A stretch of 64,000 bases of DNA from Bacteroidota bacterium (GCA_020048155.1 JAIFMY010000022.1:4356-68355); one strand, 5' to 3'; positions 4,835 to 34,938 are shown, counted from the first letter of the stretch. Program-made: numbers and translations. Notes: a model not told the origin generated them from the letters alone.

Positions 4835-4895
4835 AAAATTATAATAAGATGCAAAATCTTATCTATAGATTTTTGCTGTAATGATACGTCAATAT

Positions 4896-6326: not shown

Positions 6327-6346
6327 TCTATCAGATTTTTAAAGTT

Positions 6347-7207: not shown

Positions 7208-7211
7208 AATT

Positions 7212-8336: not shown

Positions 8337-8362
8337 TTAAAATTTCGATTTAAACTTAGAAA

Positions 8363-8854: not shown

Positions 8855-8881
8855 AATTGGCGAATGTTATAAAAATTTAAT

Positions 8882-10636
8882 CTATTTCCCATTCATAATT
8901 CTTAGTACAGGATACCTCATAAAACTGGGTTCTGCAAAAGGTGAATTATCGTAGATAAATTTTAGCTGAATGTAATGATTATTTGCGAATTCCGGATCAA
9001 TTTTCCGTTTTTGATCAAACTTTTCTTTCAATTCCGGATGATTTTTTAGATACTCAACTGCTCTTGGCTCAAAACCATATGGTGAGAAGTATTCTCGTCT
9101 TTCAAGTATCTCATCAAAAAAGTTCCATTGAAAAAAAGAATCTGCCCCTTTTGGTTCAAGCATTTGGACTATATACTTATTCGCATCTTGGTTTACTGGT
9201 ATTTTAATATCCCCCTTATAGATTTTCATCCATCGTTTTTCGGTTCGCAATTCTATATTGTTGATAGGGCGATGACCTCCAGTCTGATAGTTTGAGAACT
9301 CAAATTTATCTATAAAATATACTTCGGCCATGCAGACCGTGTCGCGCTGAATAACCTCAAATTTGACATTATTGAGCCTCAACCTTTCAATTACTTCATG
9401 CCATGCAAATGGAACAATATAATAATCAGGTGCTTCAATTTGAGCAGTAGTAACGAGTGTATTGTAAAAGGGGATTTTTTTGTTATATGGTTTTTCCAAG
9501 TCATACCCAAAAGTTTGGGCACCGGTTAGGCTGCTATTTTTCCATAGGGCTTCATAGCCTTTAAACCAAATACTATCAACTTGTGTAGTATCGGTTTCAA
9601 AATTAATTTCAAAAACTGACTGATTACTAACCTTTTTATTGGCAGCAGCGCGATATTGTCCTATTGGAAAATGGTATTTTTTCACCAAACCAAGCAATTG
9701 TTCCAAAAAAGCATAAGTGGCCTTCACCCGCAGATCGTAAGTTTTATACGAATGAGTTTCGGTGAGAAATGAAATGGTATTGAAAAGTGTGGCATATCCG
9801 GTTGAATATTTTGGTGAATCGTAGAAACCGAAAATCCCGGTAGAAGGGTCGTCAACTACCCAGTCTTTGGTTTGTACATAAGGTGCCATTTCAAAACCAA
9901 TCTTGGTCATTTTATTGTGAAACTCCGGCATCAGCACATCACCCATAAAATTCCCCAATGGTTCAGACAGAAAACGAGGATTGGAATGTATGAGTGTGAT
10001 TACGTACTGGTGTTCACTTCCGTCGGTGGTGTGGGTATCTACAAATACATCCGGATTCCATGCATGAAAAATCTGAGCAAAACTTCGGGCATTGTATGAA
10101 TCAGCTTTTACGAAATCGCGATTCAGGTCCAGGTTTCTTGCGTTGCCTCTAAAACCGTGTTCTAGGGGAAAAATTTGGTTGGCTCGGTTGTATGAACTTC
10201 GCATGAGAGCCCCGCCAATATTGTATATAGGAATGATGCACAAAACAGTACTATCGAGCAGTTTCATTTTATCATCCTTATTGGAAAGAAGGTCAGCAGC
10301 AAGCCACAACGAAGCATCTACACCTTCAGGTTCTCCTGAGTGAATGCCGTTGTTTATCAGCATGATCCTACGGTTTTTCTTTTTAATTTTAACAGGGTCA
10401 AACTCACCATCAGAGCTAATGACAAATAGATGAAGTGGCTTACCTACATCAGTATAGCCATATTCAATGAGCTTTGCTTGCTTGTACATTTTGTCAAGTT
10501 TCTGGTATTCAATAATCACAGAGTCGTAACTTAGCGTACGTTGTTGATTGAATACCAAGAAATCTTGCGCACTTGAGTTAAAAAAAGTCGCAAAAAAAAT
10601 AAAAAAACTGAGGAAGGTGAGTTTACTTAGTTCCAT
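8882..10636 (-). CDS. Secreted M14-family zinc carboxypeptidase
   Basis: The protein has a signal peptide (…FFNSSAQD) and the Zn-binding HxxE motif (NGIHSGEPEG), plus later DTHTT and ETHS motifs. It is 584 aa long. Confidence 0.7.
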   Translation of the reverse strand: MELSKLTFLSFFIFFATFFNSSAQDFLVFNQQRTLSYDSVIIEYQKLDKMYKQAKLIEYGYTDVGKPLHLFVISSDGEFDPVKIKKKNRRIMLINNGIHSGEPEGVDASLWLAADLLSNKDDKMKLLDSTVLCIIPIYNIGGALMRSSYNRANQIFPLEHGFRGNARNLDLNRDFVKADSYNARSFAQIFHAWNPDVFVDTHTTDGSEHQYVITLIHSNPRFLSEPLGNFMGDVLMPEFHNKMTKIGFEMAPYVQTKDWVVDDPSTGIFGFYDSPKYSTGYATLFNTISFLTETHSYKTYDLRVKATYAFLEQLLGLVKKYHFPIGQYRAAANKKVSNQSVFEINFETDTTQVDSIWFKGYEALWKNSSLTGAQTFGYDLEKPYNKKIPFYNTLVTTAQIEAPDYYIVPFAWHEVIERLRLNNVKFEVIQRDTVCMAEVYFIDKFEFSNYQTGGHRPINNIELRTEKRWMKIYKGDIKIPVNQDANKYIVQMLEPKGADSFFQWNFFDEILERREYFSPYGFEPRAVEYLKNHPELKEKFDQKRKIDPEFANNHYIQLKFIYDNSPFAEPSFMRYPVLRIMNGK

Positions 10637-11351
10637 AAATAATTACTGAGCCGGCTATTTCGCGTACCATAGGTATGCGCTCCAATGATTTACCGAGTTT
10701 ATCAACAAAAGAAATAAGAGACTGAGGTACATTAGGATGTAAAAAATCGTATGGGAACAACTCAATATTATTGAATCCGGTTTTGGCCATAAGTTTTGCA
10801 AATGGCCAACGAACAACAGCAGTTTCATCTGGAGAGTCGCCCAGCCATTTTTTTATGAAGGGTACATTTTTTTGAATAAAAATCTGTGGATTGAGCATAT
10901 TGGGTTCCGCAAAAATGATCCGTCCACCCGGTTTCAATACACGATATATCTCAGACAATGCTTTATCGAATTGTAGATGGTGCAAAATTGAACTTCCATA
11001 TACCACATCAAAAGTATTATCTGCAAAAGAGAGAGCCATCGCATCTTCAAGCCTGAAATCTACATCAGGAAGCTTTTTGCGGCCTTGGTCAAGCAGTTCC
11101 TGAGAAATATCGATGGCAGTAATGAGCGAATAAGTAGCAAAATAAATTTTTTCAGTAAACAGTGCCGTACCGCAACCTATTTCGAGTGCGTTGGTAGTGC
11201 GGTTTAGTTTACCAAGATCAATAAAGAAATTGGCTCTGCGTTGTGCTCTCAATTTTCCGGCCGGACTGCTCCAACCCCAAACTTCTTCAGCATTTTCGCT
11301 TATTTTCTTTCCATGTTCAATTTCGTTAGCAATTTTCTTATCAATTTCCAT
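10623..11351 (-). CDS. Class I SAM-dependent methyltransferase
   Basis: Motif I is LEIGCGTALF, followed by DVVYGSSILHH and LKPGGRIIF. Its 3' end overlaps the M14 start by 14 nt. Confidence 0.8.
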   Translation of the reverse strand: MEIDKKIANEIEHGKKISENAEEVWGWSSPAGKLRAQRRANFFIDLGKLNRTTNALEIGCGTALFTEKIYFATYSLITAIDISQELLDQGRKKLPDVDFRLEDAMALSFADNTFDVVYGSSILHHLQFDKALSEIYRVLKPGGRIIFAEPNMLNPQIFIQKNVPFIKKWLGDSPDETAVVRWPFAKLMAKTGFNNIELFPYDFLHPNVPQSLISFVDKLGKSLERIPMVREIAGSVIIYGTK

Positions 11352-11414
11352 TTTGAAATATTTATGATAGTCACTTTACAATTTAATAAATTAAAATACA
11401 GAAGCTGATCAAGA

Positions 11415-13457
11415 TTACAAAATTTGATATAAATAAGCCTCTTCATCGTCGCCCAAACGGTGCAACAATTTAATTTTCTCCGGGTACTTTCGTTGAATGT
11501 AAAATAAATAGCGTTGTATGGTATTTATTGTATATTCTGTTTTCTGCGTTTCAAATTTGCGCAATCTGGCGTCTACAACGTACTGAACATTATTTTCATA
11601 CAATTTATTCAATAAATCGTCGGGGTCTATGACACTGATTTCAACTTCGTGACCTTTGTTTTGGGCTTCTACTGTATCAAATTCTTTTTCGAGCAGCGTC
11701 AGATCATTGGCAGCCACCAAACCACTTTTTTCCATTAGTTTATTTAAGACAGTATCAGCACTATGCGTATATATTTCAAAAACATAGGTAGCCACGCTGT
11801 TTCCTTTATCATCTTTCTGATTAGCTGTAAGAAAGCCTACATTTTCTGTTTGCCACTTCATATAGTACGGCTGCATACTCACAACTTTTTCCCAGTCTTG
11901 AGCCCTTACGATGTAATAATTGTTTCCCAATTTGTTTAACTTAGCTTTCAGACTGTCAAGTGGCAAAGTAGGCAAATTGTACATTCCATAAAACCTTCGG
12001 TTGGTATATACAAACGAAATGCTGGGTTTCCGGCATCCAATGGTAACAGAATCAGGCACATTCTCGGCTGCATACTGGCTCATATGTATGTAGTTAATCC
12101 AATCAGGTGAAAAACCATATAATAAATCGCCTCTAAGATTGTGCGATATGGTATCTGAGTACGACTTAGTTTTGAGTATTGTACGCTGTAGGCTAGCAAA
12201 GATGAGCACTACAGCTATGAGTGGGAGTAAATATTGCATGAATGCCAATCGCTTATTTTTTCCGGCATAATAAAAAGCAGATAAAACAGCAACTACAATA
12301 AGCGGAAAATAAATAATGATAAGGCGCCTGGAATCCCAGAGGGTTTGAAGCGCAAGAAAAGTAGCTCCCAGCATGACTGCCAAATACAAGTATATAAACA
12401 ATACTTTGAGATTACGTTTGAAAACATGAATAATTCCGAGTATCAAAATACCATAAACCAGAAATACCAGAATATTTTGCACGTCAACTATTTCTTCGCG
12501 TAGCCCAAAAAAGGCAAAGAGGTGCTTAGATAAATATAACCCGGAGTTGTTCCAGAATCGTTCAATAAACCCAACAATATCTTCGTTGCCACGTGCAGGG
12601 TCATACGGATGTTTCAGAAGCAAGGTACCACCTTGTGCCTCAATCTGCGAAGTAGAATTTCCCCAAAGCAACAATTTGAGACCAGTCCATAAACTATAAA
12701 ATCCTACAAACGAGCCCAAGCTGAAAGCCAGGGGTTTCCACGCTTTGAGTAATATATAAAACAAAGCTAAGGCAACTGGCGCAGCAAATGCAATATTTTT
12801 GGTAATAGATAAAAGAAAGAGCAATAAACCTGTAATTACATGATACTTCCAATGCTGTTGAATTTGTATCTCAGCATTTTGGGTTTTCCAAACTTTCTCA
12901 AACAAAAAATAAAATAAGCCCATTTGCAAAGCCAGAAAGAAGGCTTCAGAATAAGTTTGGCTTGCATAATAAAGCACATATGCATTTAATCCCACTATAA
13001 GCATAGAAGCAACTAGTACAAAAGGCGGGATTGAATTTTGTAACGACTTGAAAAATAACCTTATATGTAAAAGTATAAAGGCAAAAGAAACAAATTTGAG
13101 CAGAGCCAGATTTATGCCAGCAATGGCTACAAATATAGACAGAACCATGGGATACAATGGCCCTTGAAAACTGGGGTACTTGAATTCCGAAACAAAATCT
13201 GCAGCACGAATCACATATTCAGAATCGTCGCCCCCAACACTGCTTTTCAAATCGAAGGTAAGGAGCGTAAAAATAAAAGTGGATGCAAATGCAACCAGAA
13301 ATACAAGATTAAGAAATTTCTCGGAGCGAAAATCTAAAGATTGTAAAAAATCTACATGCTCTAATGCTCGCTTCTTAGTGTTATTTTTAGATGCACCAGG
13401 TTGATTTGCAACATTTTTAGGTGCATTAATATTTTTTATTTTGTTTGTAGGCTTCAT
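11415..13457 (-). CDS. Polytopic membrane protein, GT-C (ArnT/PMT, GT39/83-like) glycosyltransferase candidate with a C-terminal soluble domain
   Basis: The 680-aa protein has many hydrophobic helices. An acidic first-loop motif (GGDDSEY) sits where GT-C enzymes carry their D/E motif. The C-terminal ~230 aa are hydrophilic. Confidence 0.45.
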   Translation of the reverse strand: MKPTNKIKNINAPKNVANQPGASKNNTKKRALEHVDFLQSLDFRSEKFLNLVFLVAFASTFIFTLLTFDLKSSVGGDDSEYVIRAADFVSEFKYPSFQGPLYPMVLSIFVAIAGINLALLKFVSFAFILLHIRLFFKSLQNSIPPFVLVASMLIVGLNAYVLYYASQTYSEAFFLALQMGLFYFLFEKVWKTQNAEIQIQQHWKYHVITGLLLFLLSITKNIAFAAPVALALFYILLKAWKPLAFSLGSFVGFYSLWTGLKLLLWGNSTSQIEAQGGTLLLKHPYDPARGNEDIVGFIERFWNNSGLYLSKHLFAFFGLREEIVDVQNILVFLVYGILILGIIHVFKRNLKVLFIYLYLAVMLGATFLALQTLWDSRRLIIIYFPLIVVAVLSAFYYAGKNKRLAFMQYLLPLIAVVLIFASLQRTILKTKSYSDTISHNLRGDLLYGFSPDWINYIHMSQYAAENVPDSVTIGCRKPSISFVYTNRRFYGMYNLPTLPLDSLKAKLNKLGNNYYIVRAQDWEKVVSMQPYYMKWQTENVGFLTANQKDDKGNSVATYVFEIYTHSADTVLNKLMEKSGLVAANDLTLLEKEFDTVEAQNKGHEVEISVIDPDDLLNKLYENNVQYVVDARLRKFETQKTEYTINTIQRYLFYIQRKYPEKIKLLHRLGDDEEAYLYQIL

Positions 13458-13546
13458 GCATATGAGTTTGAGGCGCTAAAATAGGTGATTTACTTGTCAT
13501 GAGCAAAGCCAATAAGCAAACAAAACAGATGATTTTGAAAAAGGGC

Positions 13547-13945
13547 TTAACTAAAGACAATAAGCGATTTCATTTTGGAAACAAGAATATCCAAGTTAAT
13601 AGGTTTGGTTACGTAATCGTCGCATCCAACTTCATACGCCCTATCTTTTTCGGAAGCCATAGCAAAAGCAGTTTGTACAATGATGGGGATATCATGATTA
13701 ATGCTTTTAATTATTTCGATGGCTTGATATCCATTCATAACAGGCATCTGAATATCCATGAGAATGATATGAATATGGTTGTTTTTTTTTACAAAATCTA
13801 CAGCCTCTTGTCCGTTATTGGCTCTAAAAATGTGAGCGCCGGTGCGTTTGAGGGCTACCCTAATAAGCTGATAGTTGATCTCCTCATCTTCAGCAATTAG
13901 AATATTCACATTTGTCCAATTCGGCAATTCTTTATTCATATTCAA
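13547..13945 (-). CDS. Stand-alone response-regulator receiver (CheY-like)
   Basis: The motifs ILIAEDEEIN, the phospho-acceptor context IILMDIQMPVMNG, and VQTA and TKP are present. No output domain follows. Confidence 0.9.
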   Translation of the reverse strand: MNMNKELPNWTNVNILIAEDEEINYQLIRVALKRTGAHIFRANNGQEAVDFVKKNNHIHIILMDIQMPVMNGYQAIEIIKSINHDIPIIVQTAFAMASEKDRAYEVGCDDYVTKPINLDILVSKMKSLIVFS

Positions 13946-14121
13946 TAAATTCGCTAATATCCAAGTATAATTCGCAAGGCGAAAAACGGAAATTTCAATT
14001 TATAATTAATAATAAAACAGTATTCAAAGATAAATACTTTATTTCCGAAAAATAGACATTTTTTACAGTTTAGCAAATATTATTGATTTTTTGCGATTTT
14101 GCTTAGAATAGAAATAATGGT

Positions 14122-16434
14122 TTAAGCTACGCTCTTGGCTTCATAACCTATAGCCACAATTTTAAAGGGCAATCCATCGGTATTTAATATAGGTGCTAAA
14201 ATGGCTTTATACCTTTTTTCTTTATCGCCTACCTGTATTTCCCAACCCGATTCAATAATTTCGCCATCGCGCAATCTGCTCCACATAACGTTAAATTCAT
14301 CAATGGTGTTAAATGGAATTTGAAAAATGCCCACCGCAGTTTTACCAAGCATGGCATCTTTAGATTTATCAAAAAATTCGGCGAACAAATCGTTGGCAAA
14401 TATAAGTACTCCTTCAAGGTCAAACTCGGCCATCAGGCTTATTTTGTCAACCGCATTCAACAAACTTTTTATTTCGGAATCCTGCTGAGCGAAACGTTCT
14501 TGGGTGGCTTGCAACTCTTCCATGTTTATGCGCATCTCGTCTTCTTGCAAAAGCATATCTTCAGATTGCTGTTTGGTTTTAACGAGTAATTTGTTGGTCT
14601 GATCGGCTATTTTTACAGAAGAAACCGTAGATGCAATATTCTCGGCCAGCGTTTCAACAAATGCAATTCGGAAAGGCTCGAGCTTATGAAGCATGGCTAT
14701 TTCAATCACACCGTATAATTTATCTTTGTAAATAAGGGGTACAAGTACTATCTGTTTGGGCTTTGTTTCGCCCAGGCCTGATGTAATGTAAACATACGAA
14801 TCGGGTACTTGATTAACGATGATGGTATTTTTCTCGATTGCGCATGTACCTACGAGTTCATTTCCAAAATCGATGACACGTTTCAGATATTTACGTTTTG
14901 AGTATGCAAAGGCACTCACCAATTCCAATTGTTTTTTATCGCCTTCAATATCTGTGACTATGAATAAAGCTCCTTGCACTGCTCCCACGTATTGTGTCAA
15001 TTCGCTGATAACATTGTATGCAAATTCTTCAATATTGTCGTTGTTTTGGCGAAGAATATTGCCAAACTTAGCCAAACCTTCGGTAGTCCAGTTCCTACGA
15101 TGATCTTCGTCTCTGCGTTTATCTTCCAAATTTTCAGCATCTATAAGACTCTGGCGCATGGCCAAAAGGGCATTTCCAAGAGAATCGTCTTTGCTAAGTG
15201 TTTCATATTCAGCATCAAGCTTGCCTTTACCTATCTGATTAGCGAATTCTGCCATCTTATTGAGGCTATCCAAAATCTGATTGAGTGAACTCGAAACTTT
15301 TCCTATTTCATCATTTCGTTCGGGCAATTTTTCCATCTGTATCTTGCCCAAAGATATTTCTTCTGCTATATCGGCAACTTTGGAAAGGGGCTTTATGAGG
15401 TAATTCAGGAAAAACACAATGATTAACCCACCAGAAAGCAACATCAGGAAACTAATGGTTATCATTTTTATTCTGAAAGACATAGCCTCATCAGCAATTT
15501 CAGATTTCAATGTAGAAGATAACACATAGAAAGATGAACGGAGGTTTGTGAGAGCTACAGGTTGTCCGATAATAAGTTTATCGTTTAAATCGTGTCTTGC
15601 AATCTTATTGCTTTGAATATCCACCAAAAGCTCTACAGATTCGGTATATACCTGATTTATATTCTGACCTACAAAAAAAGGTTGATTAGAATCGTAAATA
15701 ATAATCCCTCTGCTATTTGTAAGTTGCCAATGAGTATGAATACTTTCATTGCTGTAGGTAAAAAAATCTTTCAGTGGTGCATTGTTTACAACTACGGCCA
15801 CTACGCCTTTAAACTCATTGTTGAGCATTATAGGGGTGGCTTGCCAGAAAAGTAATTGCTCTACCCCATGAAAATTTAGAAATTCGGGTGAAGTAATTAT
15901 ATCACGCTGAAATTTACGCGGTTGTAAATAAAAATCGCCTTTCGGCTCTGAATCCAGATTAAGCAATTTCTCAAATCTGATTTTGCCAGATGGATCTCGC
16001 CAAAAATGAACTGCAAAACGGCCAAATGAATCGAAATAATCACGTATCTGATTAGTTGTATCTGAATAGCTAATAATTCCTTCTTCAAGCACAAGATTTA
16101 CACCGATTATATTTTCGTTGGTGCGCATGTAATTTCGAACCACCGGAAATATTTCGTCGATGCTTAGAGCCATGGGATAGATAGGATCGAAAGCTGCTTT
16201 TATTTGTGCAGACAAATAATTATTAAAATCGAAACCTTGTTTGTAATGAGATTGGGTTAGTACTGCAATTTCAGAAGACTTAGAGCTGATACCGGCTGTA
16301 TGCTGATTTTCAAGGCTATTTAAAGTAGAAACATAGGAAACCGAAGCTAAAACGGACATAACCACGGTAGCGGTGATGCCAACCAGCATGCCTATTTTGA
16401 ACTTTATACTTCCTGAAATTAGTTTCAGCTTCAT
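14122..16434 (-). CDS. Membrane sensor with TM, Cache-like periplasmic domain, TM, HAMP, GAF, coiled coil and PAS, and no recognisable output domain
   Basis: The 770-aa protein has a Cache-type segment (…FKGVVAVVV…), a HAMP region (LIKPLSKVADIAEEISLGKI…) and GAF (…LTQYVGAVQGALF…VPLIYKDKLYGVIEIA). It ends after one PAS. I found no H-box, HATPase, GGDEF or PP2C motifs. Confidence 0.75.
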   Translation of the reverse strand: MKLKLISGSIKFKIGMLVGITATVVMSVLASVSYVSTLNSLENQHTAGISSKSSEIAVLTQSHYKQGFDFNNYLSAQIKAAFDPIYPMALSIDEIFPVVRNYMRTNENIIGVNLVLEEGIISYSDTTNQIRDYFDSFGRFAVHFWRDPSGKIRFEKLLNLDSEPKGDFYLQPRKFQRDIITSPEFLNFHGVEQLLFWQATPIMLNNEFKGVVAVVVNNAPLKDFFTYSNESIHTHWQLTNSRGIIIYDSNQPFFVGQNINQVYTESVELLVDIQSNKIARHDLNDKLIIGQPVALTNLRSSFYVLSSTLKSEIADEAMSFRIKMITISFLMLLSGGLIIVFFLNYLIKPLSKVADIAEEISLGKIQMEKLPERNDEIGKVSSSLNQILDSLNKMAEFANQIGKGKLDAEYETLSKDDSLGNALLAMRQSLIDAENLEDKRRDEDHRRNWTTEGLAKFGNILRQNNDNIEEFAYNVISELTQYVGAVQGALFIVTDIEGDKKQLELVSAFAYSKRKYLKRVIDFGNELVGTCAIEKNTIIVNQVPDSYVYITSGLGETKPKQIVLVPLIYKDKLYGVIEIAMLHKLEPFRIAFVETLAENIASTVSSVKIADQTNKLLVKTKQQSEDMLLQEDEMRINMEELQATQERFAQQDSEIKSLLNAVDKISLMAEFDLEGVLIFANDLFAEFFDKSKDAMLGKTAVGIFQIPFNTIDEFNVMWSRLRDGEIIESGWEIQVGDKEKRYKAILAPILNTDGLPFKIVAIGYEAKSVA

Positions 16435-19400
16435 TGTCCATTTGTTTTATTGCCTCTCAATTCCTCTATAGCCTTTTTGTAGTTCATTTCGGCTACTTTG
16501 TAAGAGGTTATATCAAAACTCACCACTACTATCCGGTTTACTTGTTCATTCTTGTCGAGTACTGGAATATAATACTCAGAGAAATAGAAAGTTTTATTTT
16601 TAACTTCGTATCTATAAACCCTCTGTTGTGTAATACCTGTGCGTATTTTACTCCACAATACGTGATATTTCAGATAGTTCTCAATTACGGCCATATCTTT
16701 ATGCATTTTTCGCTTCATGTCCTTTTCTTCAAGTTCGAGAAGGCTCATCATTGGTTGGCTCATGCTTATGAGATTGGTTTCCAAGTCGTATTCTGTAAGT
16801 AAAAGGTTTCCACCAAGTGCATTCATAATTCCGTCGAGGCCGTCAAGCTCCGAGTTGCTGAATTCAACGCTTTCTTTGTACAAAACCAGGCTCTCAATCA
16901 GCTGTTTTTCATTACGTTCAGCTTCTTGTTTATATTGTTCAAATTGTTTAATTGTATCTATTTCGCTGGTTTTATTCCAACTCAGATTCAGAATTTTCAA
17001 AAGGTTCTTATTTTTATCAAGTATTGGTTTGTATATTTCCGACATGTAAAGACGTTCGTCTCCAAATTGCAATTCGAAATCTCGCGAAAGCATATTACCA
17101 CTGGCGAGTTCGTTCCAGAAATTTTCAAAATCGCGGCTATCGGTGATGGTTGTATAGTTTCTCAGATTCTTACCGAGTACATCATCGTTAATTCGATAAG
17201 TTTTCTTCAAAATGTCATTCACTTGCAAAATTGTACCGCCTTTATCGAAAATTGCAACACAAACTGTATCATTGAGCGATTCCATAAATGCATCATACAT
17301 AGCTGTATTTATATAACTATCTGTTTGTAGATTGACAAGTTGCAAGAAATAATTTTGCATTTCGAAATTGGTAATTTGCAATTCGTGTGTTTTGTGGTTG
17401 AGTTGCTGATGTATTTCTTTGTAGGTGGTAATATTGAGCGCTATAACCATAACTTTGTAAAAAGCTCCATCAGTATCGTAAAGCGGTGTATAGGTTTCCT
17501 TGAAGTATAGATTTTCTTTGCTGACTTTAATTCTCGAAATTACATTTTTCACAATACCGGCCTTCAAGTCGTTCCAGAATTGGAAATAGGATACTTCGTC
17601 AAAATCTTCAATTTCGCAAAAATCAGGATGATGGATTCCGGTGAGTACTTCGCGGGAAATTCCGAGTAACTTAAGTGTATTGGTGCTTATTTCGATAAGC
17701 GACCCAAACTGATTGAACTCATAGGTATAAGCAGCATTATCAATGGCAAGAATCAAACCTTGCATTTTGAATTCTTTGCGTGCCGATTCTTCTTGTGTAG
17801 CTTGCAATTCTTCAAGATTCTGCCTCATTTCTTCCTCTTGCGATGCCAGCTCTTCTGATTGTTTCTTAGACTGTTGCAAAAGCAACACGGTACGTTGATT
17901 GATGAGCACTGATGAAATGGTAAGGGCGATGCTTTCAGCAAGTTTTTCAACAAATCGAATTTTAAAATCTGCGATTTCTACCAGGGATGCAATCTCAATT
18001 ACACCTACAATATTATTGTCATATTTAAGCGGAACTATAAGCAAATTGCGGGGGGAAGTATTGCCAATACCAGAGGTGATAGATAGGTAATCTTCGGGCA
18101 AATTGGTTAAATGGATAATATCGCCTTCAACAGCGCACATGCCTACAAGACCTTCTTTCAGTTTCACTTGCTTCTGCAAATATTTCTTTCGGTTGTATGC
18201 AAATGCAGCTACAAGCTCAAGATATGGATCGCGTTTGTTTTCGTTCTGATATAAAAAAATACCACCTTGTATGGCCTCAAGATATCTTATAAGCTGGCTT
18301 ATAATACTATGCGTAAGTTTACTTATGTCATTGGTATCTTTGCGCAATAAATCGGAAAATTTGGAAAGGCCAATATTAGTCCAGTTTCGTATTTCGTCTT
18401 CTTGTCGTCTGTTCTTTTCTTGCTCTTCAGCTTGGTATAGTTCATTACGCATGTTGAGCAAGGCATTTCCGAGTGCATCATTCTCTGACAATACGGTGTA
18501 CTCAGCATTTAAATTGCCTGCACCTATTTCTTTAGCAAAACTGGTGGTTTGTCTAAGTCCGTCTATAATTTTATTGATATAATTGAGCATCAGATGCAAC
18601 TCAGCCGATGCTTCAATAGTAGGTATTTTTGTTATAAAAATATCGCCATTCGAAACCTTTTCAAGTAAAGTGTTGATTTGCATAAGTGGACGTACCAATC
18701 TTCTGGAAAGCAGGTATGACAAGAAAAAAGCCAATAAAACACCAAGAAATGTGAGTATATAAAATGTAAATCTCTGGTTCTGAAACAAATCTTTGTATGA
18801 TTTTGCAGAAACCAGCGATATAAGCGCCCACGATTTTCCGGTATTTCCAACTAAGAAAGGTGTAACACATATTTGTTGTTGTTCCTGCATGAATTCCAAT
18901 TCGTTTACGAATGTGAATTGGCGACCGCTCGGAATTTTGTCAATGACTTTGTGTTTCAAATTGAGCTCGCGATACATTTCACCAAACTGAGCATTCACAT
19001 TTCGGTCTTCATGGTGGGCAACAATCTGTCCGTTGTCTGAAATAATAAAAGAAGATGATTCCGAAACTGTATTTCCGCCGGCAATCATTTGCTTGAGCTG
19101 ATTTATAGGAATATCATATCCAACGACTCCTACAAAAACTCCATTGCTGAAAATGGGCACAGCCACCGAAATACACCATACTTCGTCTCTTACATCTCCT
19201 GTGTAAGAATAGCGGGTAGGCTCAATAATCACTTCGCGCTGTAAACTTCTTACTGTAAGATATTTATCGTTTTGGAGAAGAAAATTTTCTCTGTCAATAT
19301 TGATATTTTCCTGCCCTACAAAGTTTTTGTATTTATAAAAAGAAAGAATAAAACGTCCTGAATTTTTTTCATCCGGATTTACATATTGTTTGTCTAATGA

Positions 19401-19757
19401 ATCGAGAGCCATAGGTTCCCAAATCATCCATGCGCTGATGGCAGAGTTATTGCCTTCGAGTGTTGCTCCCATCAGGTGAGTGAAGAATTTTCGTCTTTCT
19501 GCAGTACTTACAGTATTATATTGCGATGAAAGTTCAGACAATTGTCTTGCCAATTGAAAAGTTTTATCAATCTCGTTAGAAATAAGTTTGGTCTGTGAGT
19601 TGGCAGTATTTATGAGTTCTGTAGATTGCCAACCCGAAGAAATATTATTGAGTATCAGCTCGCTATAAAAAACAATAAGCCCGAGTACAATAATAGCACC
19701 CGTACCAAAGAAGGTAAAAATAGCCAGGCTTATGGTTCGCAATCTGAGTTTCTTCAT
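16431..19757 (-). CDS. Membrane sensor with TM, dCache-like domain, TM, HAMP, GAF, coiled coil and about 4 PAS, and no recognisable output domain
   Basis: This 1108-aa protein is a paralog of the downstream 770-aa gene and shares the same HAMP/GAF core (AEYTVLSENDALGNALLNMR; RNWTNIGLSKF; IRYLEAIQGGIF; VPLKYDNNIVGVIEIA). Its stop overlaps the next ATG (ATGA at 16431..16434). Confidence 0.75.
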   Translation of the reverse strand: MKKLRLRTISLAIFTFFGTGAIIVLGLIVFYSELILNNISSGWQSTELINTANSQTKLISNEIDKTFQLARQLSELSSQYNTVSTAERRKFFTHLMGATLEGNNSAISAWMIWEPMALDSLDKQYVNPDEKNSGRFILSFYKYKNFVGQENINIDRENFLLQNDKYLTVRSLQREVIIEPTRYSYTGDVRDEVWCISVAVPIFSNGVFVGVVGYDIPINQLKQMIAGGNTVSESSSFIISDNGQIVAHHEDRNVNAQFGEMYRELNLKHKVIDKIPSGRQFTFVNELEFMQEQQQICVTPFLVGNTGKSWALISLVSAKSYKDLFQNQRFTFYILTFLGVLLAFFLSYLLSRRLVRPLMQINTLLEKVSNGDIFITKIPTIEASAELHLMLNYINKIIDGLRQTTSFAKEIGAGNLNAEYTVLSENDALGNALLNMRNELYQAEEQEKNRRQEDEIRNWTNIGLSKFSDLLRKDTNDISKLTHSIISQLIRYLEAIQGGIFLYQNENKRDPYLELVAAFAYNRKKYLQKQVKLKEGLVGMCAVEGDIIHLTNLPEDYLSITSGIGNTSPRNLLIVPLKYDNNIVGVIEIASLVEIADFKIRFVEKLAESIALTISSVLINQRTVLLLQQSKKQSEELASQEEEMRQNLEELQATQEESARKEFKMQGLILAIDNAAYTYEFNQFGSLIEISTNTLKLLGISREVLTGIHHPDFCEIEDFDEVSYFQFWNDLKAGIVKNVISRIKVSKENLYFKETYTPLYDTDGAFYKVMVIALNITTYKEIHQQLNHKTHELQITNFEMQNYFLQLVNLQTDSYINTAMYDAFMESLNDTVCVAIFDKGGTILQVNDILKKTYRINDDVLGKNLRNYTTITDSRDFENFWNELASGNMLSRDFELQFGDERLYMSEIYKPILDKNKNLLKILNLSWNKTSEIDTIKQFEQYKQEAERNEKQLIESLVLYKESVEFSNSELDGLDGIMNALGGNLLLTEYDLETNLISMSQPMMSLLELEEKDMKRKMHKDMAVIENYLKYHVLWSKIRTGITQQRVYRYEVKNKTFYFSEYYIPVLDKNEQVNRIVVVSFDITSYKVAEMNYKKAIEELRGNKTNGQ

Positions 19758-19877
19758 ATCAAATATAATTTGCTAAAATAAGTAATTGCAGGTTAAAATT
19801 ATCACAAATTCAGAATTTTGAAACATTTTTAGATAAAATTTGTAAATTAATCTCGTATGAGCGATTTCATAGACTTC

Positions 19878-20273
19878 CTAAACATTTGTTGAGTGCGCAT
19901 AATGCAGTATTATTTGTTGAATTTTGGTAAAAGCTTCCTGATCTTTTATTATAAATTCATTTATATTTTCTCTATTCAATTGGTAAATAGCTTCCAGATC
20001 ATTTTTAGCAGATAGAATGATGGTTCGAATGTTTTTATTGGTAGCCTTAATATCTTTCATAATCTCCAATCCGTTTCGGGCTGTATTTGAATGGTTGTTG
20101 AGATAATAGTCCATAATAACAAGCTGAGGGTTCAAGTGGAGATTGTTGAGGGCATCTTCACCATTCTGGAAAGGCACTATCTTAAACTCTTTCAATTCAG
20201 ATAAATAGTCTTTTAACATTTCCAGAAAAACCCAATCATCATCTACTATGAAAACGGTAAGTTTATCATTCAT
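19878..20273 (-). CDS. Stand-alone response-regulator receiver
   Basis: The motifs VFIVDDD, LVIMDYYL, ILSAK and IIKD are present. The gene starts 3 nt after the hybrid kinase stop. Confidence 0.85.
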   Translation of the reverse strand: MNDKLTVFIVDDDWVFLEMLKDYLSELKEFKIVPFQNGEDALNNLHLNPQLVIMDYYLNNHSNTARNGLEIMKDIKATNKNIRTIILSAKNDLEAIYQLNRENINEFIIKDQEAFTKIQQIILHYAHSTNV

Positions 20274-20276
20274 ACA

Positions 20277-22790
20277 TTACTTTATTTTAGTCCAGTCATC
20301 TATCAATCCTTCAAGCAGATGCGCTGCATGCATCCACATAATTTCAATATTACCGGCTTTTGCATTTACACTTAATCTAAATTGTTCGTTATCAATATTT
20401 TGTTCTATTTCAAGTGCGGATATGTGAATTTGCTTCATGCCCAAATAATTCATAGTACTTTTGATAGAGTGGGCAATAGTACGAACTTTTTTCCAATCAT
20501 TATTCACGCAAGCTTCCTTCAATCCATAGATTTGTAAAGGAATTTGCTCCAGATACAATCTCAGGATGTCAATCATTTTAACGTAATTGTGGTTGTATAA
20601 CGAAAGTAACATACTAAAATCGAAATCATTGGCAGTAAGAATACTGTTTGGAACATTTTCAGTACTATCTGCTATCGTAGTTTTCGGAATCCCTAAATTC
20701 AACTTATTACCTGAAAGCAATTTCTGAATTTCGGCATATAGTTCGTTTGGTATGAATGGTTTGGTGAAGTATGAATTCATTCCTATTTCCAGACATTTTT
20801 CGGCCTCATCTTTGAGCGCATGTGCAGTGAGAGCGATGATAGGAACTCTACATGCAGGTTCGTTTAAATGGTTTCGTATATATTTGGTGGCTTGCATGCC
20901 GTCCATTACTGGCATTCTAATGTCCATTATCACTATGTCTATTCTATTGGTTTGCATCATTTCTATCCCCTCTTTACCATTGTTGGCTATAAGAAAGACT
21001 AAGTTTTTGTCAAAAACCTGCAAACTATCAATAAGTAGCCGTTGATTTATAAGATTATCTTCAACCACTAGTACAGTATACTTATCAGAATTAATGGATT
21101 GAACTATAGACAGACCTTTGGGTATAACTTCGCTTTCGGAATTTCCCAATTTGAGTTCTATGATAAATGTAGTACCTAAGTTGGTTTTGGATTCTACATG
21201 CATTTCTCCCCCCAATCCTTCTATTAGGAATTTGGCAAGTGATAAACCAATACCCGTGCCAAGCGGATTGATGTATACACCGTTCTCAATTTTTCCGAAC
21301 TGGTTAAAAAGCATGCTAATTTTTTCTTCGGGAATGCCAATACCAGTATCTTTTATATAAAACTCAATTTTATTTTCTATACGCCTTCTTACCCCATATT
21401 CGATAAATCCCTTTGGAGTGTATTTTATTGCGTTAGATATGAGTATAAGCAATACTTGTTTTAGCCTAATATGGTCGGTAACAAAAGTATATCCTTCCGG
21501 AAATTCAATATTTACTTTTCGAAGTTCAACATTATTATTATTGCCAAATATTTTGATTTGGTTTTCGATAGAGACCTGCAAATCTTCGAAAAACTTACTC
21601 ATAACCACTGGCTTAGGGTTCAGGATGAGCTGCCCAGACTGAATTTTTGCAATGTCAATGATATCATTTATCAGAAAAAGCAAGTTGCGGGTGTTGCTGC
21701 TGATAAAGTCCAGATATTCTTCTTTCTGGTTTTCAATCAAATCTTTGGATTGAAGTAGTTTTGTGAATCCAATAATGGCATTAAGAGGCGTTTTTATTTC
21801 ATGGCTCATATTGGCCAGAAATATAGATTTTATGTGATCTGCTTCCTCGGCGCGCAATTTTGCAGTATTGAGGTTCTCTTCGAGCAGTTTTTGTTGTGTT
21901 ATATCTTGTATAATGCCTTGAACTTTGAAATTTTTCTGTTTCCCATTATTGTTGGATGCTATTAGCTTGGCATGTCTGATGCCGGCCAATGGATGATTTA
22001 TTACAAATTCGACTTCAAAATCCTTGTTATTGAGTATAGAATCATCGAAAGAAATAAAAATTCTTTGGGTATCGTCTTTAGAAAGATTCACAAAAAGATC
22101 CTTTATTGTAAATAAATCTATATCAGACTCTACACCTAATATATTTTGGGTTTCGTCGCTAGTTCTTATGGTTGCATTGCTTTCTATATATTCCCAGTGA
22201 CCTATTTTAGCAATGCGCTGTGCTTGCCGCAACCTTTCTGATGCCAACATGGCAGTCTCGTCCTTTATATATGCTATCAAACAATCAGACAAATATGAAC
22301 CAGCAAGCTTTAAAAAGTCGAGTATTAAATCGGGAATTATGTATGGTTTGGTGGAATGAACAATCTGTACAGCCCATATATGGTTCTCAACATAAATCGG
22401 AATATATACCTGATTGATTTTAACTTTTACCGAAACACCTTCATCTTTATTTATCCAGTTACTTACGAATGCAATTAAATATTTGTCAGTAAATACGTTG
22501 ACGAAAAATTTTTCAACAAAATTGCTAACCAATGGCGTATTTGAATGAAAATAGGCCAAATTAAAAGTATCGGTCACATATGTATGTTTACTAAAATATT
22601 GGTTGGAAGGATGATAAACCAATGAAACAGCTTCGGCATTACATTGTGAATTTATAATAGATAAATATTGATCAACTTTTTGCTGAATGGATAAATCGGA
22701 AGATAACAAAGTTGAAATTTCGATAAGAGCAGACCAAAGATTTGATATATTACCGCCGGATGATGAGTTATCTTGAAGATTTTTTTCCAT
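20277..22790 (-). CDS. Soluble hybrid sensor histidine kinase (N-terminal GAF-like region, PAS, HisKA, HATPase, REC, HPt)
   Basis: The protein has the H-box SHEIKTPLNAIIG and ATPase boxes (ISNAIKYTP, DTGIGI, GTGIGLS). The REC domain reads VLVVEDN…VIMDIRMPVMDG…TKP, and the C-terminal HPt reads HSIKSTMNYLG. I saw no TM segment. Confidence 0.9.
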   Translation of the reverse strand: MEKNLQDNSSSGGNISNLWSALIEISTLLSSDLSIQQKVDQYLSIINSQCNAEAVSLVYHPSNQYFSKHTYVTDTFNLAYFHSNTPLVSNFVEKFFVNVFTDKYLIAFVSNWINKDEGVSVKVKINQVYIPIYVENHIWAVQIVHSTKPYIIPDLILDFLKLAGSYLSDCLIAYIKDETAMLASERLRQAQRIAKIGHWEYIESNATIRTSDETQNILGVESDIDLFTIKDLFVNLSKDDTQRIFISFDDSILNNKDFEVEFVINHPLAGIRHAKLIASNNNGKQKNFKVQGIIQDITQQKLLEENLNTAKLRAEEADHIKSIFLANMSHEIKTPLNAIIGFTKLLQSKDLIENQKEEYLDFISSNTRNLLFLINDIIDIAKIQSGQLILNPKPVVMSKFFEDLQVSIENQIKIFGNNNNVELRKVNIEFPEGYTFVTDHIRLKQVLLILISNAIKYTPKGFIEYGVRRRIENKIEFYIKDTGIGIPEEKISMLFNQFGKIENGVYINPLGTGIGLSLAKFLIEGLGGEMHVESKTNLGTTFIIELKLGNSESEVIPKGLSIVQSINSDKYTVLVVEDNLINQRLLIDSLQVFDKNLVFLIANNGKEGIEMMQTNRIDIVIMDIRMPVMDGMQATKYIRNHLNEPACRVPIIALTAHALKDEAEKCLEIGMNSYFTKPFIPNELYAEIQKLLSGNKLNLGIPKTTIADSTENVPNSILTANDFDFSMLLSLYNHNYVKMIDILRLYLEQIPLQIYGLKEACVNNDWKKVRTIAHSIKSTMNYLGMKQIHISALEIEQNIDNEQFRLSVNAKAGNIEIMWMHAAHLLEGLIDDWTKIK

Positions 22791-22802
22791 GCTCAGCTCA
22801 AA

Positions 22803-25376
22803 TTAAAGATGCGCAAGATCGCATTTTATACCTATTACCAAAATATCATCCACCTGATCTCGGCTTCCCTTCCAATCTGTGTAGGACTGATGTAATATGT
22901 TTTTTTGTTCGTCGAAAGGTTTGAGATGTATATCTACCAAGAGTTCCTGCATTTTTTTTGCCATGAATTTTCGGTCTTTGGGTCCGCCAAACTGGTCGGC
23001 ATATCCATCTGAGTAAAGATAAATAACATCATCAGGCAAAAAAGTATCTTCTATACTATTGAACGACACCTCGTTCTGATGGTACACACCTATAGGCATG
23101 CGGTCAGCATCAAATTTAGTTAGCTCACCATTTCTTATCCGGTACATGCCATTATTGGCTCCTGAGAACTGAAGTGTACTGTTGCTTCTATCGAGTATCA
23201 CCATTGACATGTCCATTCCGTCTTTGGTTTCAGTACCCGTTTTATTCAATTGGTGCAAAGATTCTATCACCTTACGGCGCAACTCATTGAGCAGTTGGTC
23301 TGATTTAAAATTAGGGTTTACGGTGATAATTTCGTTGAGGAAAGAAATGCCAAGCATACTCATAAGAGCCCCAGGTACACCATGCCCAGTGCAATCTGCA
23401 GCAGCCACAATGATGCGCGAACCCACTTGTCGCGCCCAATAAAAGTCGCCACTCACAATATCACGTGGGTTGTAATAAATGAAAAACTGATTGATAGAGC
23501 CTTTTATAATTTCAAGTGGGGTAAGCAATGCTTGCTGTATGCGCGATGCATACTGAATACTATCAACAATTGCTTTTCTTTGTTCCGAAATTTTATCGCG
23601 CTGTTCAATCACATAATCGCGTTGTATTTCAATTTCATCACGCTGAGCTGTTATTTCTTCCTTTTGTTGCTCAAGCGCATGGTTCTGAAGGTTGATTTTA
23701 TCGTTTTGAAGTTGAATTTCATCGCGCTGCTTCTCAATTTCTTTTTTCTGAGCAAAAAGCAAAGCATTGTCGCGCTTTTTTTGTTGGTAGTTTTTGAATA
23801 TAAGAAAAGCAACAGCAATCATTAGCAGCAACCCAACCGAAACGGCATTTCTGATAAGTTTTTGTCTTTGCAATTCAGCTTGACTTTTTATATCTTTTTC
23901 GTGCTGCTCAAACTCAATCTGCTTTTGTTTTTGGTCGAATTGATACTGCATGGCCAGCTGAGTGATTGTCTTTGTCATTTCTTCGTTGTTGAGGCTATCA
24001 CGCATTTGCTGCGAAAGGGCCAACATATCAAATGCATTCTGATAATCGCCTGTAGCGGCATATGCCTGGCTCAGATGATAACTTGATTCTCGTTTTATAT
24101 CCATCAGTTTCATCTGATTTCCCATAGAAAGTGCTTGTTGCAGAATTATGATAGCATTTTTGAAGTCCTTCATTTTGTTGTATATACTGCCAATATTGTT
24201 GTATCCAACAGCCATTCCCTTTAAATCACCAATTTGTTCCATGAGTTGGGCCCCTACCCTATAGTTATTCAATGCATCGGCCGTTTTGTGCATGCGTTTA
24301 AAAACTTCGCCCAAATTGTATCTGGCGGAGGCTTCAATTTGTTTGATTCCAAATTGTGTGCTCATATCTAATGTTTTCTGAAAATAATTGAGCGCTTCAG
24401 CCAAGTGTGAAGTATCTTTGTCAGCCATTTTAAGGTAAACATTTCCGAGGTTGTTGTATATTTGGGTTATGCCTACCATATCCGAAAATTCTTCACGTAT
24501 TTTCAAACTTTTGAAATAATAATCGAGACTCGATTCGTAATTTTCTTGTTTCAGGTGAATATTGCCAACATTGTTCAGTGTAGTAGCCATGCCGGCTATA
24601 TCGCTAATTTCTTCGCTTATACGCAAGCTTCGCAGATAAAAATCAAGTGCTTTGTCGTATCCACCTTGTTTTTCGAAAATATTTCCAAGGTCGTTATATA
24701 CAAAGCCTATTCCCCTTTTCTCGCCAATTTCTTCAAAAAGAACGAGAGCCTTGTTTAGTTTTTCGAGAGCAGTGGTATAATCTCCCTTATTTAGGTGTAC
24801 CGTGCTGATGGTATAAAGTGAATACCCAATCCATTTTTTGTCACCCAGTTCTTCGTTTATGCGCAGCGAACGTTCGTAGTAATCGAGGGTTTTTGTAAAA
24901 TCGCTGAAATTAAGATAGATATTTCCAAGATTGTTATAAGATGACGCCAGACCTTCTTTATTTTCTCTATTGTCAGGCTCGTCTTCTACAATCTTCAATC
25001 TGATTTCAATGCTTTCTTCAAAACTTTTAATCGAATTATCGGCATCGAAACTATTGAGATAATGAATACCGATGGCATGCAATGCCCGGGCTTTTGCAGC
25101 AGGCATGGCATCTGGTGAAGATAAAATCTCGTTTACAAGAGCTTCGGTTTGGTCACTCCTCTGAAGTGCAAGTTCATATGCGTAGTCCGCTTTCAGCCTC
25201 ATTTGCTCAGATTTGTTGCTGGTTTTGAGGATGAGCGATTTCAATGAGTCAGCTTTGTTTTGTGCAAAAACTGAATTGCATAAAACTGTGATCAGCAGTA
25301 CTATATATATATGTTTGAATGACTTCATTCTTAAATGTTTATTTACTGATTTTTTTTTGCATATAAAACTAATCAT
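22803..25376 (-). CDS. Periplasmic TPR sensor, TM, long heptad helix and SpoIIE/PP2C phosphatase
   Basis: The 857-aa protein has a signal peptide (…NSVFAQNK), many TPR-like repeats (YNNLGNIY…) and a TM segment (AVSVGLLLMIAVAFLIF). PP2C motifs VSGDFYW, DCTGHGVPGA, SDGYADQFGG and QVDDILVIG are present. An alternative start at 25328 is possible. Confidence 0.85.
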   Translation of the reverse strand: MISFICKKKSVNKHLRMKSFKHIYIVLLITVLCNSVFAQNKADSLKSLILKTSNKSEQMRLKADYAYELALQRSDQTEALVNEILSSPDAMPAAKARALHAIGIHYLNSFDADNSIKSFEESIEIRLKIVEDEPDNRENKEGLASSYNNLGNIYLNFSDFTKTLDYYERSLRINEELGDKKWIGYSLYTISTVHLNKGDYTTALEKLNKALVLFEEIGEKRGIGFVYNDLGNIFEKQGGYDKALDFYLRSLRISEEISDIAGMATTLNNVGNIHLKQENYESSLDYYFKSLKIREEFSDMVGITQIYNNLGNVYLKMADKDTSHLAEALNYFQKTLDMSTQFGIKQIEASARYNLGEVFKRMHKTADALNNYRVGAQLMEQIGDLKGMAVGYNNIGSIYNKMKDFKNAIIILQQALSMGNQMKLMDIKRESSYHLSQAYAATGDYQNAFDMLALSQQMRDSLNNEEMTKTITQLAMQYQFDQKQKQIEFEQHEKDIKSQAELQRQKLIRNAVSVGLLLMIAVAFLIFKNYQQKKRDNALLFAQKKEIEKQRDEIQLQNDKINLQNHALEQQKEEITAQRDEIEIQRDYVIEQRDKISEQRKAIVDSIQYASRIQQALLTPLEIIKGSINQFFIYYNPRDIVSGDFYWARQVGSRIIVAAADCTGHGVPGALMSMLGISFLNEIITVNPNFKSDQLLNELRRKVIESLHQLNKTGTETKDGMDMSMVILDRSNSTLQFSGANNGMYRIRNGELTKFDADRMPIGVYHQNEVSFNSIEDTFLPDDVIYLYSDGYADQFGGPKDRKFMAKKMQELLVDIHLKPFDEQKNILHQSYTDWKGSRDQVDDILVIGIKCDLAHL
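23553..23741 (-). repeat. 21-nt periodic coding repeat encoding 8 consecutive I-x-x-Q-(R/N/K)-(D/E)-x heptads
   Basis: The translation reads IEKQRDE IQLQNDK INLQNHA LEQQKEE ITAQRDE IEIQRDY VIEQRDK ISEQRKA and then IVDSIQY. On the plus strand the DNA shows recurring atcgcg(c/t)tg units. Confidence 0.8.
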
Positions 25377-25679
25377 TTACTAAGTTGAAGCCAAATTTAT
25401 GTTTAACTGGCAAGATATTCAAAATGAACATGAATAAGACTGCCAACAGACTTTGTCTACATGATAAAGCCAGATATTGCAATACTAATATAGACTTTAT
25501 TTTTTACTCTACACGAAATTGGATTTGAAAAGTCTAATGCAATTTTTTCATTTTGGGAAACGTGTGGGTTATGAACTCAATTATATGTTGTAATACAATT
25601 TTTATACCATAGCCCAGGTTAAATGTGAATCATATTTGCAAACCATACAAAAGGATGATTTTCGTCAAGCGATAATTGC

Positions 25680-26708: not shown

Positions 26709-26752
26709 TACCTATAGGTGCTTGAGTGATGAGTTAAAGATAGGACAGATTT

Positions 26753-28750: not shown

Positions 28751-28780
28751 TTGGTCAAACTAAATATGAATACTTTTGGT

Positions 28781-34902: not shown

Positions 34903-34938
34903 CCGATTGTAAAGTGTATCATATTTTACACCAAATAT

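Follow-up and report, generated by a model that had tools for sequence, protein, structure and literature searches.

Our subject is a pair of adjacent genes in a 64,000-nucleotide stretch of DNA from a Bacteroidota bacterium (GCA_020048155.1 JAIFMY010000022.1:4356-68355). We refer to the whole of this stretch as the window, and to the two membrane proteins encoded as sensor A (1108 amino acids, aa) and sensor B (770 aa). We conclude that A and B are transmembrane receptors without a transmitter, and that absence of an output domain is a property of the family to which they belong. This family is large, uncharacterised, and essentially Bacteroidota-specific. An earlier interpretation of the same DNA, here called the sequence-only reading, had described A and B as coupled, paralogous sensors that lack an output. 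The coordinates it gave for the open reading frames (ORFs) are exact, and both ORFs are on the minus strand. The junction between them is CAATGAAG; its ATGA contains both the TGA that ends A and the ATG that begins B, so the overlap of stop and start is seen directly.

The proposed paralogy is borne out by BLASTP, with 33% identity over 666 aa (E 6e-97). In the same alignment, the single PAS domain of B matches three separate segments of A. The two proteins have a common layout, consisting of a first transmembrane segment (TM1), dCache, TM2, HAMP, a HAMP-like unit, GAF, a helix of about 79 residues, and PAS. There are three PAS domains in A and one in B. Hydrophobic segments, from Kyte-Doolittle analysis, flank the periplasmic domain at residues ~11-29 and ~332-350 of A, and ~14-32 and ~325-343 of B. 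Pfam recognises GAF_2 (1e-12 in A and 1e-11 in B), HAMP and PAS. It places dCache_1 below threshold, with scores of 33.6 and 22.6 bits for a cut-off of 45. Between the canonical HAMP and GAF we infer a second, HAMP-like, unit from the motif pattern and the modelled helices; Pfam does not call it.

AlphaFold2 (AF2) models have the same organisation. For B (mean predicted local distance difference test score, pLDDT, 75.7) the model has a long TM1/stalk helix, alpha/beta modules at residues 109-309, and TM2 plus HAMP at 310-402. The cytoplasmic part continues with a helix pair (418-463), GAF (468-581), a single continuous helix (587-665) and PAS (667-766), and the chain ends 4 residues past the last PAS strand. 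The model of A (pLDDT 73.7) is laid out in the same way, followed by three PAS domains (677-775, 833-928 and 986-1082) separated by helices, and a C-terminal helix of 24 residues after PAS3. Foldseek matched the B model to the solved dCache ligand-binding domains of TlpQ, PctD and McpU (E 4e-16 to 1e-11, target TM-score 0.70-0.76). The hallmark of that fold, two tandem PDC modules on a long N-terminal helix between two transmembrane segments, is present. The amino-acid-binding motif of the dCache_1AA subclass is Y..R.W..Y..D. By eye, the R-x-W-Y element is absent from A (NDKYLTVRS) and from B (KGDFYLQPRK), and we rejected membership of this subclass on that basis. Overall, Pfam, hydrophobicity, AF2 and Foldseek agree on the order of domains first proposed. 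The number of PAS domains in A, given earlier as about four, is corrected to three by the alignment and the AF2 model, which also gives the expected one for B. Similarly, the statement that both chains stop right after PAS holds for B only, since a helix follows PAS3 of A.

Neither protein contains HisKA, HATPase, GGDEF, EAL, SpoIIE, MCPsignal, REC or HTH according to Pfam or NCBIfam at E<=1. At the same threshold, Pfam also finds no Guanylate_cyc or HD-GYP, with GGDEF, EAL and SpoIIE again missing, and it reports no PHY or PAS2 match. Kinase models of NCBIfam match only the transmembrane/HAMP stretch. Hence, A and B have none of the features of a histidine kinase: no H-box or DHp and no HATPase_c is detected by these searches, and in the AF2 models the helix after GAF enters PAS directly. 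The PF00015 hairpin or tip of methyl-accepting chemotaxis proteins (MCPs) is absent from A, from B, and from 118 family tails. Since the AF2 models show only PAS (plus the terminal helix in A) beyond the helix, no unrecognised C-terminal domain is hidden in either protein. The claim that there is no output therefore withstood profile and structural searches of the C-termini with Pfam, NCBIfam and AF2. In sum, A and B lack what defines histidine kinases, MCPs, c-di-GMP enzymes and PP2Cs, and have only what defines the dCache fold and this uncharacterised family.

Logically, a missing transmitter could mean that A and B are what truncation, or faulty assembly, has left of ordinary sensor kinases. 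The absence itself is the sole support for this idea, which we regard as barely credible. The exact A and B proteins occur in several independent assemblies, and their 90% clusters hold sequences of identical length only; the source data are metagenomic (WGS set JFJP01). In a relative with 70% identity (locus L001) both ORFs are intact, encode 1106 and 770 aa, and are 2 nucleotides apart. Hundreds of homologs share the length and the end point. Furthermore, B has a complete N-terminal membrane sensor of its own, which excludes that A and B are two halves of a single gene. Between the stop of B and the next gene, encoding a receiver, is only a 176-nucleotide AT-rich spacer, and no kinase-like reading frame follows B. 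Origin by frameshift or fragmentation, which the sequence-only reading had raised as a danger, is thus ruled out by the independent assemblies, by L001, and by the modal length of the family.

GTDB was scanned with the motif pattern described below, using one genome per species. There were >599 motif matches, at least 519 of which encode family relatives, nearly all from Bacteroidota. Hosts include Bacteroidales metagenome-assembled genomes (MAGs), Marinifilum, Draconibacterium, Williamwhitmania, Rikenellaceae, Perlabentimonas and Rhodocytophaga. A separate search with B gave 34 homologs, none with an output domain, from Fulvivirga, Salinivirgaceae and Bacteroidales genomes. Database names of members are generic only ("PAS domain S-box protein", "cache domain-containing protein"), and the family did not turn up in the literature, searched by motif string and for HAMP/GAF/Cache sensors without an output. 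Across 79 GTDB loci, the modal length is ~770 aa, with ~140 residues, or one PAS, past the motif. Some members end 43-50 residues past the motif without PAS, and others have 300-660 residues of PAS repeats. When 118 post-helix tails were compared with Pfam, 107 had PAS, 4 hemerythrin and 1 GAF. HisKA, HATPase, GGDEF, EAL, MCPsignal, SpoIIE, REC and HTH were found in 0 of the 118, and no tail had HD-GYP or Guanylate_cyc.

The same picture emerges at larger scale. In a profile search of 5.8 billion proteins, every match of at least 644 bits is without output; the next matches, at 285 bits or less, are generic PAS/GAF/Cache proteins. A search of 1.84 billion representatives gave a top 150 clusters that all score at least 790 bits and have lengths of 763-4799 aa. 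Only two of these 150 join the core to an enzyme domain. P0113 has GAF, helix-PAS repeats and SpoIIE, so that PP2C is fused in cis, and P0182 has GAF, the motif, PAS and a histidine kinase, also in cis. Three other proteins with outputs (P0105, P0122 and P0221) were set aside as family fusions, because they matched through PAS arrays alone. Giant relatives of 2000-4800 aa, with up to ~14 PAS domains, also occur (e.g. P0103 and P0105) and are mostly without output. P0103, of 2391 aa, has the arrangement 4HB_MCP-GAF-14xPAS. Typical members are also present on contigs binned as a Thiohalospira (Gammaproteobacteria) MAG (L023 and L031). Since these contigs are short, mis-binning is likelier than true occurrence outside Bacteroidota.

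The most distinctive part of the family is the helix between GAF and PAS, which carries the nearly invariant motif QEEEMRQNMEELQATQEE. In A the sequence is QEEEMRQNLEELQATQEE, and in B a variant, QEDEMRINMEELQATQER. The helix motifs quoted in the sequence-only reading were located at residues 642-656 of A and 631-646 of B. Across 118 sequences, the near-invariant segment is AQEEEMRQNMEELQATQEE-x-x-RK-x-x-E. Note that nine of the motif positions belonged to the pattern used for the locus search, so that ascertainment explains part of their invariance. Positions that flank them (in A numbering Q640, E641, A653, T654, Q655, E656, E657, R660 and E664) are outside the pattern and equally conserved. 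Homologs found by protein similarity alone also have the motif. Glu-Glu pairs of A, at 635/636, 642/643, 649/650 and 656/657, are spaced by exactly 7 residues. The heptad register puts L/M/L at position a and polar residues (Q, N, T) at position d.

Mean pairwise identity across the family is 16% for Cache, 24% for HAMP, 46% for the HAMP-like unit, 42% for GAF, 46% for the helix (63% for the motif) and 21% for PAS. Hence, the HAMP-like unit, GAF and helix form a conserved signalling core, with variable sequence at both ends. The core consensus is FAxxIGKGxLDxEY..LGxSLLxMR..RNWxTEGLAKFxxILR. A looser form is FAxxIG.G.L.AEY..LS..D.LG..LL.MR, then RNW.T.GL.KF..ILR at the start of GAF. Both A (FAKEIGAGNLNAEY... 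and RNWTNIGLSKFSDLLR) and B (FANQIGKGKLDAEY... and RNWTTEGLAKFGNILR) have this HAMP-like/GAF consensus. In long members, the helix motif recurs 2-8 times between PAS pairs. It is also found once (37 bits, ASEEELRQNMEEMAATQEEMVRKEQEL) at locus L073, where it separates the first two PAS domains in the sensor half of a genuine MCP. We conclude that the helix is a portable helix-PAS module and not a unique terminal site. The idea that it is the unique site of output is weakened by the same two observations. By profile, the nearest solved relatives of the PAS domain are the FAD (flavin adenine dinucleotide)-binding PAS-A of MmoS (domain E 1e-18) and Aer (1e-12).

The surroundings of A and B are listed in Table 1. 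Every gene from 36255 to 11415 is on the minus strand. As the sequence-only reading had it, A and B have a soluble hybrid kinase and stand-alone receivers as neighbours. The kinase (837 aa) is HisKA-HATPase-REC-Hpt, and there is one receiver on either side of the A-B pair. The kinase and both receivers have zero hydrophobic segments in Kyte-Doolittle windows, and within the N-terminal 320 aa of the kinase Pfam finds only a weak PAS (209-293), which leaves the first ~180 aa without an assignment. The gaps are 12 nucleotides between the nearest PP2C gene and the kinase, 3 between kinase and receiver, 120 between receiver and A, -4 between A and B, and 176 between B and the second receiver. The five PP2C proteins all have different inputs, which are cNMP-binding; Reg_prop/Y_Y_Y-PAS; TPR; REC-PAS; and TPR. 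A gene for a small TPR protein sits among them. In three of the five (~23660, ~29668 and ~35778, minus strand), heptad acidic linkers precede the phosphatase domain (QQKEEITAQRDEIEIQRD, NEEINKQKDEILKQKEEL and RQKEEIESQRDEIEAQRD). These are Q[KR][DE]EI repeats, alike in style to the helix of the sensors and different in sequence.

Table 1. Features of the sensor locus, numbered from the first letter of the window.
Feature	Position	Strand	Basis
Sensor A	16431..19757	minus	1108-aa ORF
Sensor B	14122..16434	minus	770-aa ORF
ATGA overlap, A stop TGA and B start ATG	16431..16434	minus	sequence
Periplasmic double-Cache domain of A (residues ~40-320)	18798..19640	minus	Pfam dCache_1 3.7e-8, below curated cut-off; two alpha/beta modules in AF2 model
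Conserved core of A: HAMP-like unit (413-472) and GAF (476-596)	17970..18521	minus	GAF_2 1.2e-12; family consensus
Signature acidic heptad helix of A (635-664), EELASQEEEMRQNLEELQATQEESARKEFK	17766..17855	minus	within helix 597-675
PAS1 (676-776), linker helix, PAS2 (816-929), linker helix, PAS3 (973-1083) of A	16509..17732	minus	Pfam PAS_9 and PAS_4; alignment of B PAS; AF2 secondary structure
Signature helix of B (625-654), SEDMLLQEDEMRINMEELQATQERFAQQDS	14473..14562	minus	sequence and AF2 model
Terminal PAS of B (666-766)	14137..14439	minus	AF2 model, pLDDT ~85-90; weak PAS_4; BLASTP match to PAS of PAS-MCPs
Single-domain receiver, 131 aa	19878..20273	minus	Pfam Response_reg 5e-15
Soluble hybrid histidine kinase, 837 aa	20277..22790	minus	Pfam HisKA, HATPase_c, REC, Hpt; counterpart in L001 at same position
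Single-domain receiver, 132 aa from TTG start (ATG at 13937)	13547..13945	minus	Pfam Response_reg 7e-26
Five PP2C/SpoIIE genes in a row, upstream of hybrid kinase	22803..36255	minus	Pfam
REC-PAS-PP2C protein, member of PP2C run	26753..28750	minus	
680-aa membrane protein, ~10 hydrophobic segments and soluble C-terminal part	11415..13457	minus	same position kept in L001

The 680-aa membrane protein has no match in Pfam or PADLOC, and PADLOC finds no defence-system match for A or B. An Rfam scan of 13000..26000 gave no match. Scanning 13300..23000 for sigma-70 promoters and intrinsic terminators gave the same counts as shuffled sequence; Bacteroidota promoters are not modelled by the tool. A plus-strand ORF of 133 aa (13499..13900), antisense to a receiver gene and without a Pfam match, is most likely a shadow ORF. 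Beyond the PP2C run is a gene for a 229-aa phage-lysozyme-domain protein (36532..37221, minus strand).

How might receptors without a transmitter signal? In the mechanism that we propose, ligand binding at dCache would be relayed, via TM2 and the HAMP units, to GAF and the coiled coil. Output would be an altered geometry, or association, of the helix/PAS end, and this change would be read in trans by a separately encoded signalling enzyme. At this locus, the likeliest reader would be the soluble hybrid kinase just upstream. The kinase could feed the two single-domain receivers and possibly, via Hpt, the REC-PAS-PP2C protein. A and B may also form mixed receptor complexes with different ligand specificities, as suggested by their co-translation and by the family's habit of forming tandem paralog arrays. 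Such arrays account for 59 of the 129 family genes in the loci analysed, in 19 groups of 2-5 paralogs with gaps of -4 to 186 nucleotides. Hence, the A-B pairing is typical of the family.

We tentatively propose, with slightly less than even confidence, that A and B signal by protein contact and that the adjacent soluble hybrid kinase is their reader. The kinase is favoured because of its operon position, an independent operon that combines a kinase with a sensor array, and a rare fusion to a kinase. The order of histidine kinase, receiver, A, B and receiver is kept in L001, where a 681-aa protein follows as the 680-aa protein does in the window. In the independent case, a Bacteroidales block of 8 loci, all 7 for which sequence upstream of the array is available have a dCache_2-PAS-HisKA-HATPase-REC hybrid kinase, then a YgjP-like metallopeptidase, then 3 or 4 sensors. 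This block is kept among kinase orthologs of 43-76% identity and, in L040, has different flanking genes.

Several observations weigh against this proposal. Synteny with the 837-aa kinase, seen in one close relative only, counts for little. Most members of the family are orphans whose neighbours are unrelated; just 11 of the 79 GTDB loci have a kinase core no more than three genes away, and 8 of these 11 belong to the single Bacteroidales block. The kinase of that block already has a dCache sensor of its own, and so would not need one from another protein. Of the cytoplasmic parts, the terminal PAS, where contact is proposed, is the least conserved (21%, compared with 42-46% for the core). Since PAS is poorly conserved, and absent from some members, contact between PAS and a partner cannot be the general mechanism of the family. 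The AT-rich spacers either side of the A-B pair (120 and 176 nucleotides) allow transcription of A-B apart from the kinase and receiver genes. Neighbour clustering over the 79 GTDB loci found no universal partner. Hence, the split system envisaged in the sequence-only reading is upheld in part. The gene order of L001, the Bacteroidales operon of kinase, YgjP and array, and the kinase and PP2C fusions agree with it; the fusions are rare (2 of the top 150 clusters), most members have no kinase neighbour, and PAS conservation is low.

Two further readings place the partner elsewhere. The core of HAMP-like unit, GAF and acidic helix may itself be the output, docking a conserved, unlinked partner or binding a second messenger. 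The kinase and receiver neighbours would then be incidental, and the terminal PAS domains extra inputs. We consider this unlikely, although the core is the most conserved region (motif 63%, compared with Cache 16%), members exist that end 43-50 residues past the motif, most members have no signalling neighbour, and the nearest solved PAS relatives (MmoS PAS-A and Aer) are cofactor-binding sensor domains. Neighbour clustering provided no candidate partner, and recurrence of the motif, 2-8 times between PAS pairs and once in an MCP, is more in keeping with a structural coiled coil that accompanies PAS than with a single, dedicated site for docking. Somewhat less probable again is that the sensors act on SpoIIE-type PP2C phosphatases instead of the kinase, through mixed coiled coils or PAS contacts. 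Five PP2C genes are directly upstream on the same strand, three of them with heptad acidic linkers of similar style, P0113 is fused in cis to SpoIIE, and the TM-HAMP module of the sensors is like that of 593-aa HAMP-SpoIIE proteins. However, PP2C genes are very abundant in such genomes, so adjacency is weak evidence. A SpoIIE neighbour was present in only 6 of the 82 loci analysed, one being the close relative L001, and the repeats of the PP2C linkers do not have the sequence of the family motif.

The invariant helix could, alternatively, be a site of methylation or deamidation. A and B would then be MCP-like receptors without a kinase-control tip, tuned by CheR-, CheB- and CheD-type enzymes acting on the heptad Glu-Glu/Gln residues. 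Judged from sequence, this is improbable. The exact 7-residue spacing of the Glu-Glu pairs in A is consistent with it. The MEELQAT of the helix resembles the Tsr site, MEQLTAT, and the EExxA[ST] half-consensus. The best matches to the helix profile outside the family are methylation-helix-like segments of PAS-MCPs (e.g. EEMSTNMNNMAASTEEMT), although these are not significant (independent E-value 0.23). The terminal PAS is of the type found in soluble PAS-MCPs. Genomic context also provides examples. The first came to light when metagenomes were scanned for close relatives of B, a scan that gave no intermediate relative with the kinase context. On three metagenome contigs from JGI (L092, L093 and L096), a member with the exact motif is last in an operon of CheY-CheA-CheW-CheR-303-aa kinase-CheD-CheB-member, directly after CheR, the histidine kinase, CheD and CheB. 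Pfam recognises no MCP in this operon. At L073 (Rhodocytophaga aerolata, 4027..15952) a member, a cytochrome b5, a PAS kinase, a 4xPAS-HAMP-MCP, CheW, CheY, CheB and CheA are encoded in this order on the same strand, so that the member is three genes upstream of the MCP-CheW-CheY-CheB-CheA cluster. Conversely, the CheR consensus [ASTG][ASTG]xx[EQ][EQ]xx[ASTG][ASTG] occurs in the helix as half-sites only, and a canonical CheR site was rejected for this reason. There is no che gene in the window or at about 75 of the 79 GTDB loci, and chemotaxis systems are not known from many of the host lineages (Bacteroidales). Moreover, a 577-aa all-helical protein of the L093 che operon could be a divergent receptor. 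The broader possibility, that the helix is a covalent-modification site or a docking site for CheR-, CheB- or CheD-type enzymes, and so marks a new class of methyl-accepting receptor in Bacteroidota, is on sequence grounds similarly doubtful. If true, such receptors would adapt like chemoreceptors, without the CheA-coupling tip, and signal to other enzymes. The members in che operons offer a direct test of non-MCP methyl-accepting receptors.

Among known systems, bacteriophytochromes offer a functional analogy only. XccBphP has a GAF/PHY core, a helix, and a PAS output module without enzyme activity (PMC8612531). RpBphP1, with a non-enzymatic output module (PAS9 and HOS), binds PpsR2 (PMC6899989). 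In bacteriophytochromes with a PAS9 output, the signal is thought to exit via a change in dimer geometry and partner binding (PMC8612531, PMC6899989). These proteins share with A and B a GAF-type core, a long helical linker, a terminal PAS and no enzyme, and full-length XccBphP is among the Foldseek matches of the B model. However, bacteriophytochromes are soluble, bilin-binding, and have a PAS2-GAF-PHY knot, whereas A and B are transmembrane with dCache and HAMP. No sequence relationship came to light beyond the generic GAF and PAS folds. The acidic heptad motif was seen in the family and in one MCP with the same helix-PAS module, and not elsewhere.

The stand-alone GAF protein NreA acts on the PAS kinase NreB. 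NreA is a soluble nitrate sensor (PMC12423327). Like A and B, it is a transmitter-less sensor encoded beside a soluble PAS-containing kinase, with control presumed to be by contact. Unlike A and B, it is a single soluble GAF; contact between A/B and a kinase is only inferred, and most family members have no adjacent kinase. MCPs with dCache and PAS (TlpQ/PctD/McpU-type) share the dCache fold, the TM-HAMP topology, the PAS type, and an acidic helix with heptad Glu-Glu pairs. In both, paralogs have multiplied, keeping the cytoplasmic core and varying the ligand-binding domain, and the family has two independent che-operon associations. Because A and B lack both the MCPsignal domain and the hairpin tip, there is no known route for coupling to CheA/CheW. 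The TM-HAMP-HAMP-like module is 31-34% identical to that of 593-aa HAMP-SpoIIE proteins (RsbU-type PP2C) and a HAMP-cyclase, and a Cohnella HAMP-GAF hybrid kinase has 31% identity to the HAMP-like/GAF part. The last domain is catalytic in HAMP-SpoIIE phosphatases and HAMP-GAF kinases, and PAS in A and B.

Signal transduction in Bacteroidota, a major group of bacteria in the environment and the gut, is poorly understood. This receptor family is present in hundreds of species, often as arrays in which up to five paralogs differ in their ligand-binding domains. Once found, the reader of the GAF-helix core would give function to a large block of sensory genes, and could reveal a signalling principle beyond the classical kinase, cyclase and MCP outputs. 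The window, with its pair of sensors, its single soluble hybrid kinase and its two receivers, is a compact test case.

Other recurrent neighbours were apparent across the family. In the Bacteroidales block, the YgjP-like metallopeptidase is always between the hybrid kinase and the array (L015, L020, L029, L032, L040, L044 and L049). In L015 and L050, the gene after the sensor array encodes a Fe-hydrogenase-like 4Fe-4S protein. The che operon of L093 (366..11208), found also in L092 and L096, opens with the 577-aa all-helical protein and a 102-aa protein of no recognised family. At nine loci, the gene immediately upstream of that for a ~645-aa subfamily member encodes a YfiR/HmsC-like periplasmic protein (DUF4154), and a ~780-aa dCache member often comes after the ~645-aa one. 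This three-gene unit is present in L014, L025 (7140..12310), L026, L027, L082 and others, and the N-terminal sensor of its ~645-aa member differs.

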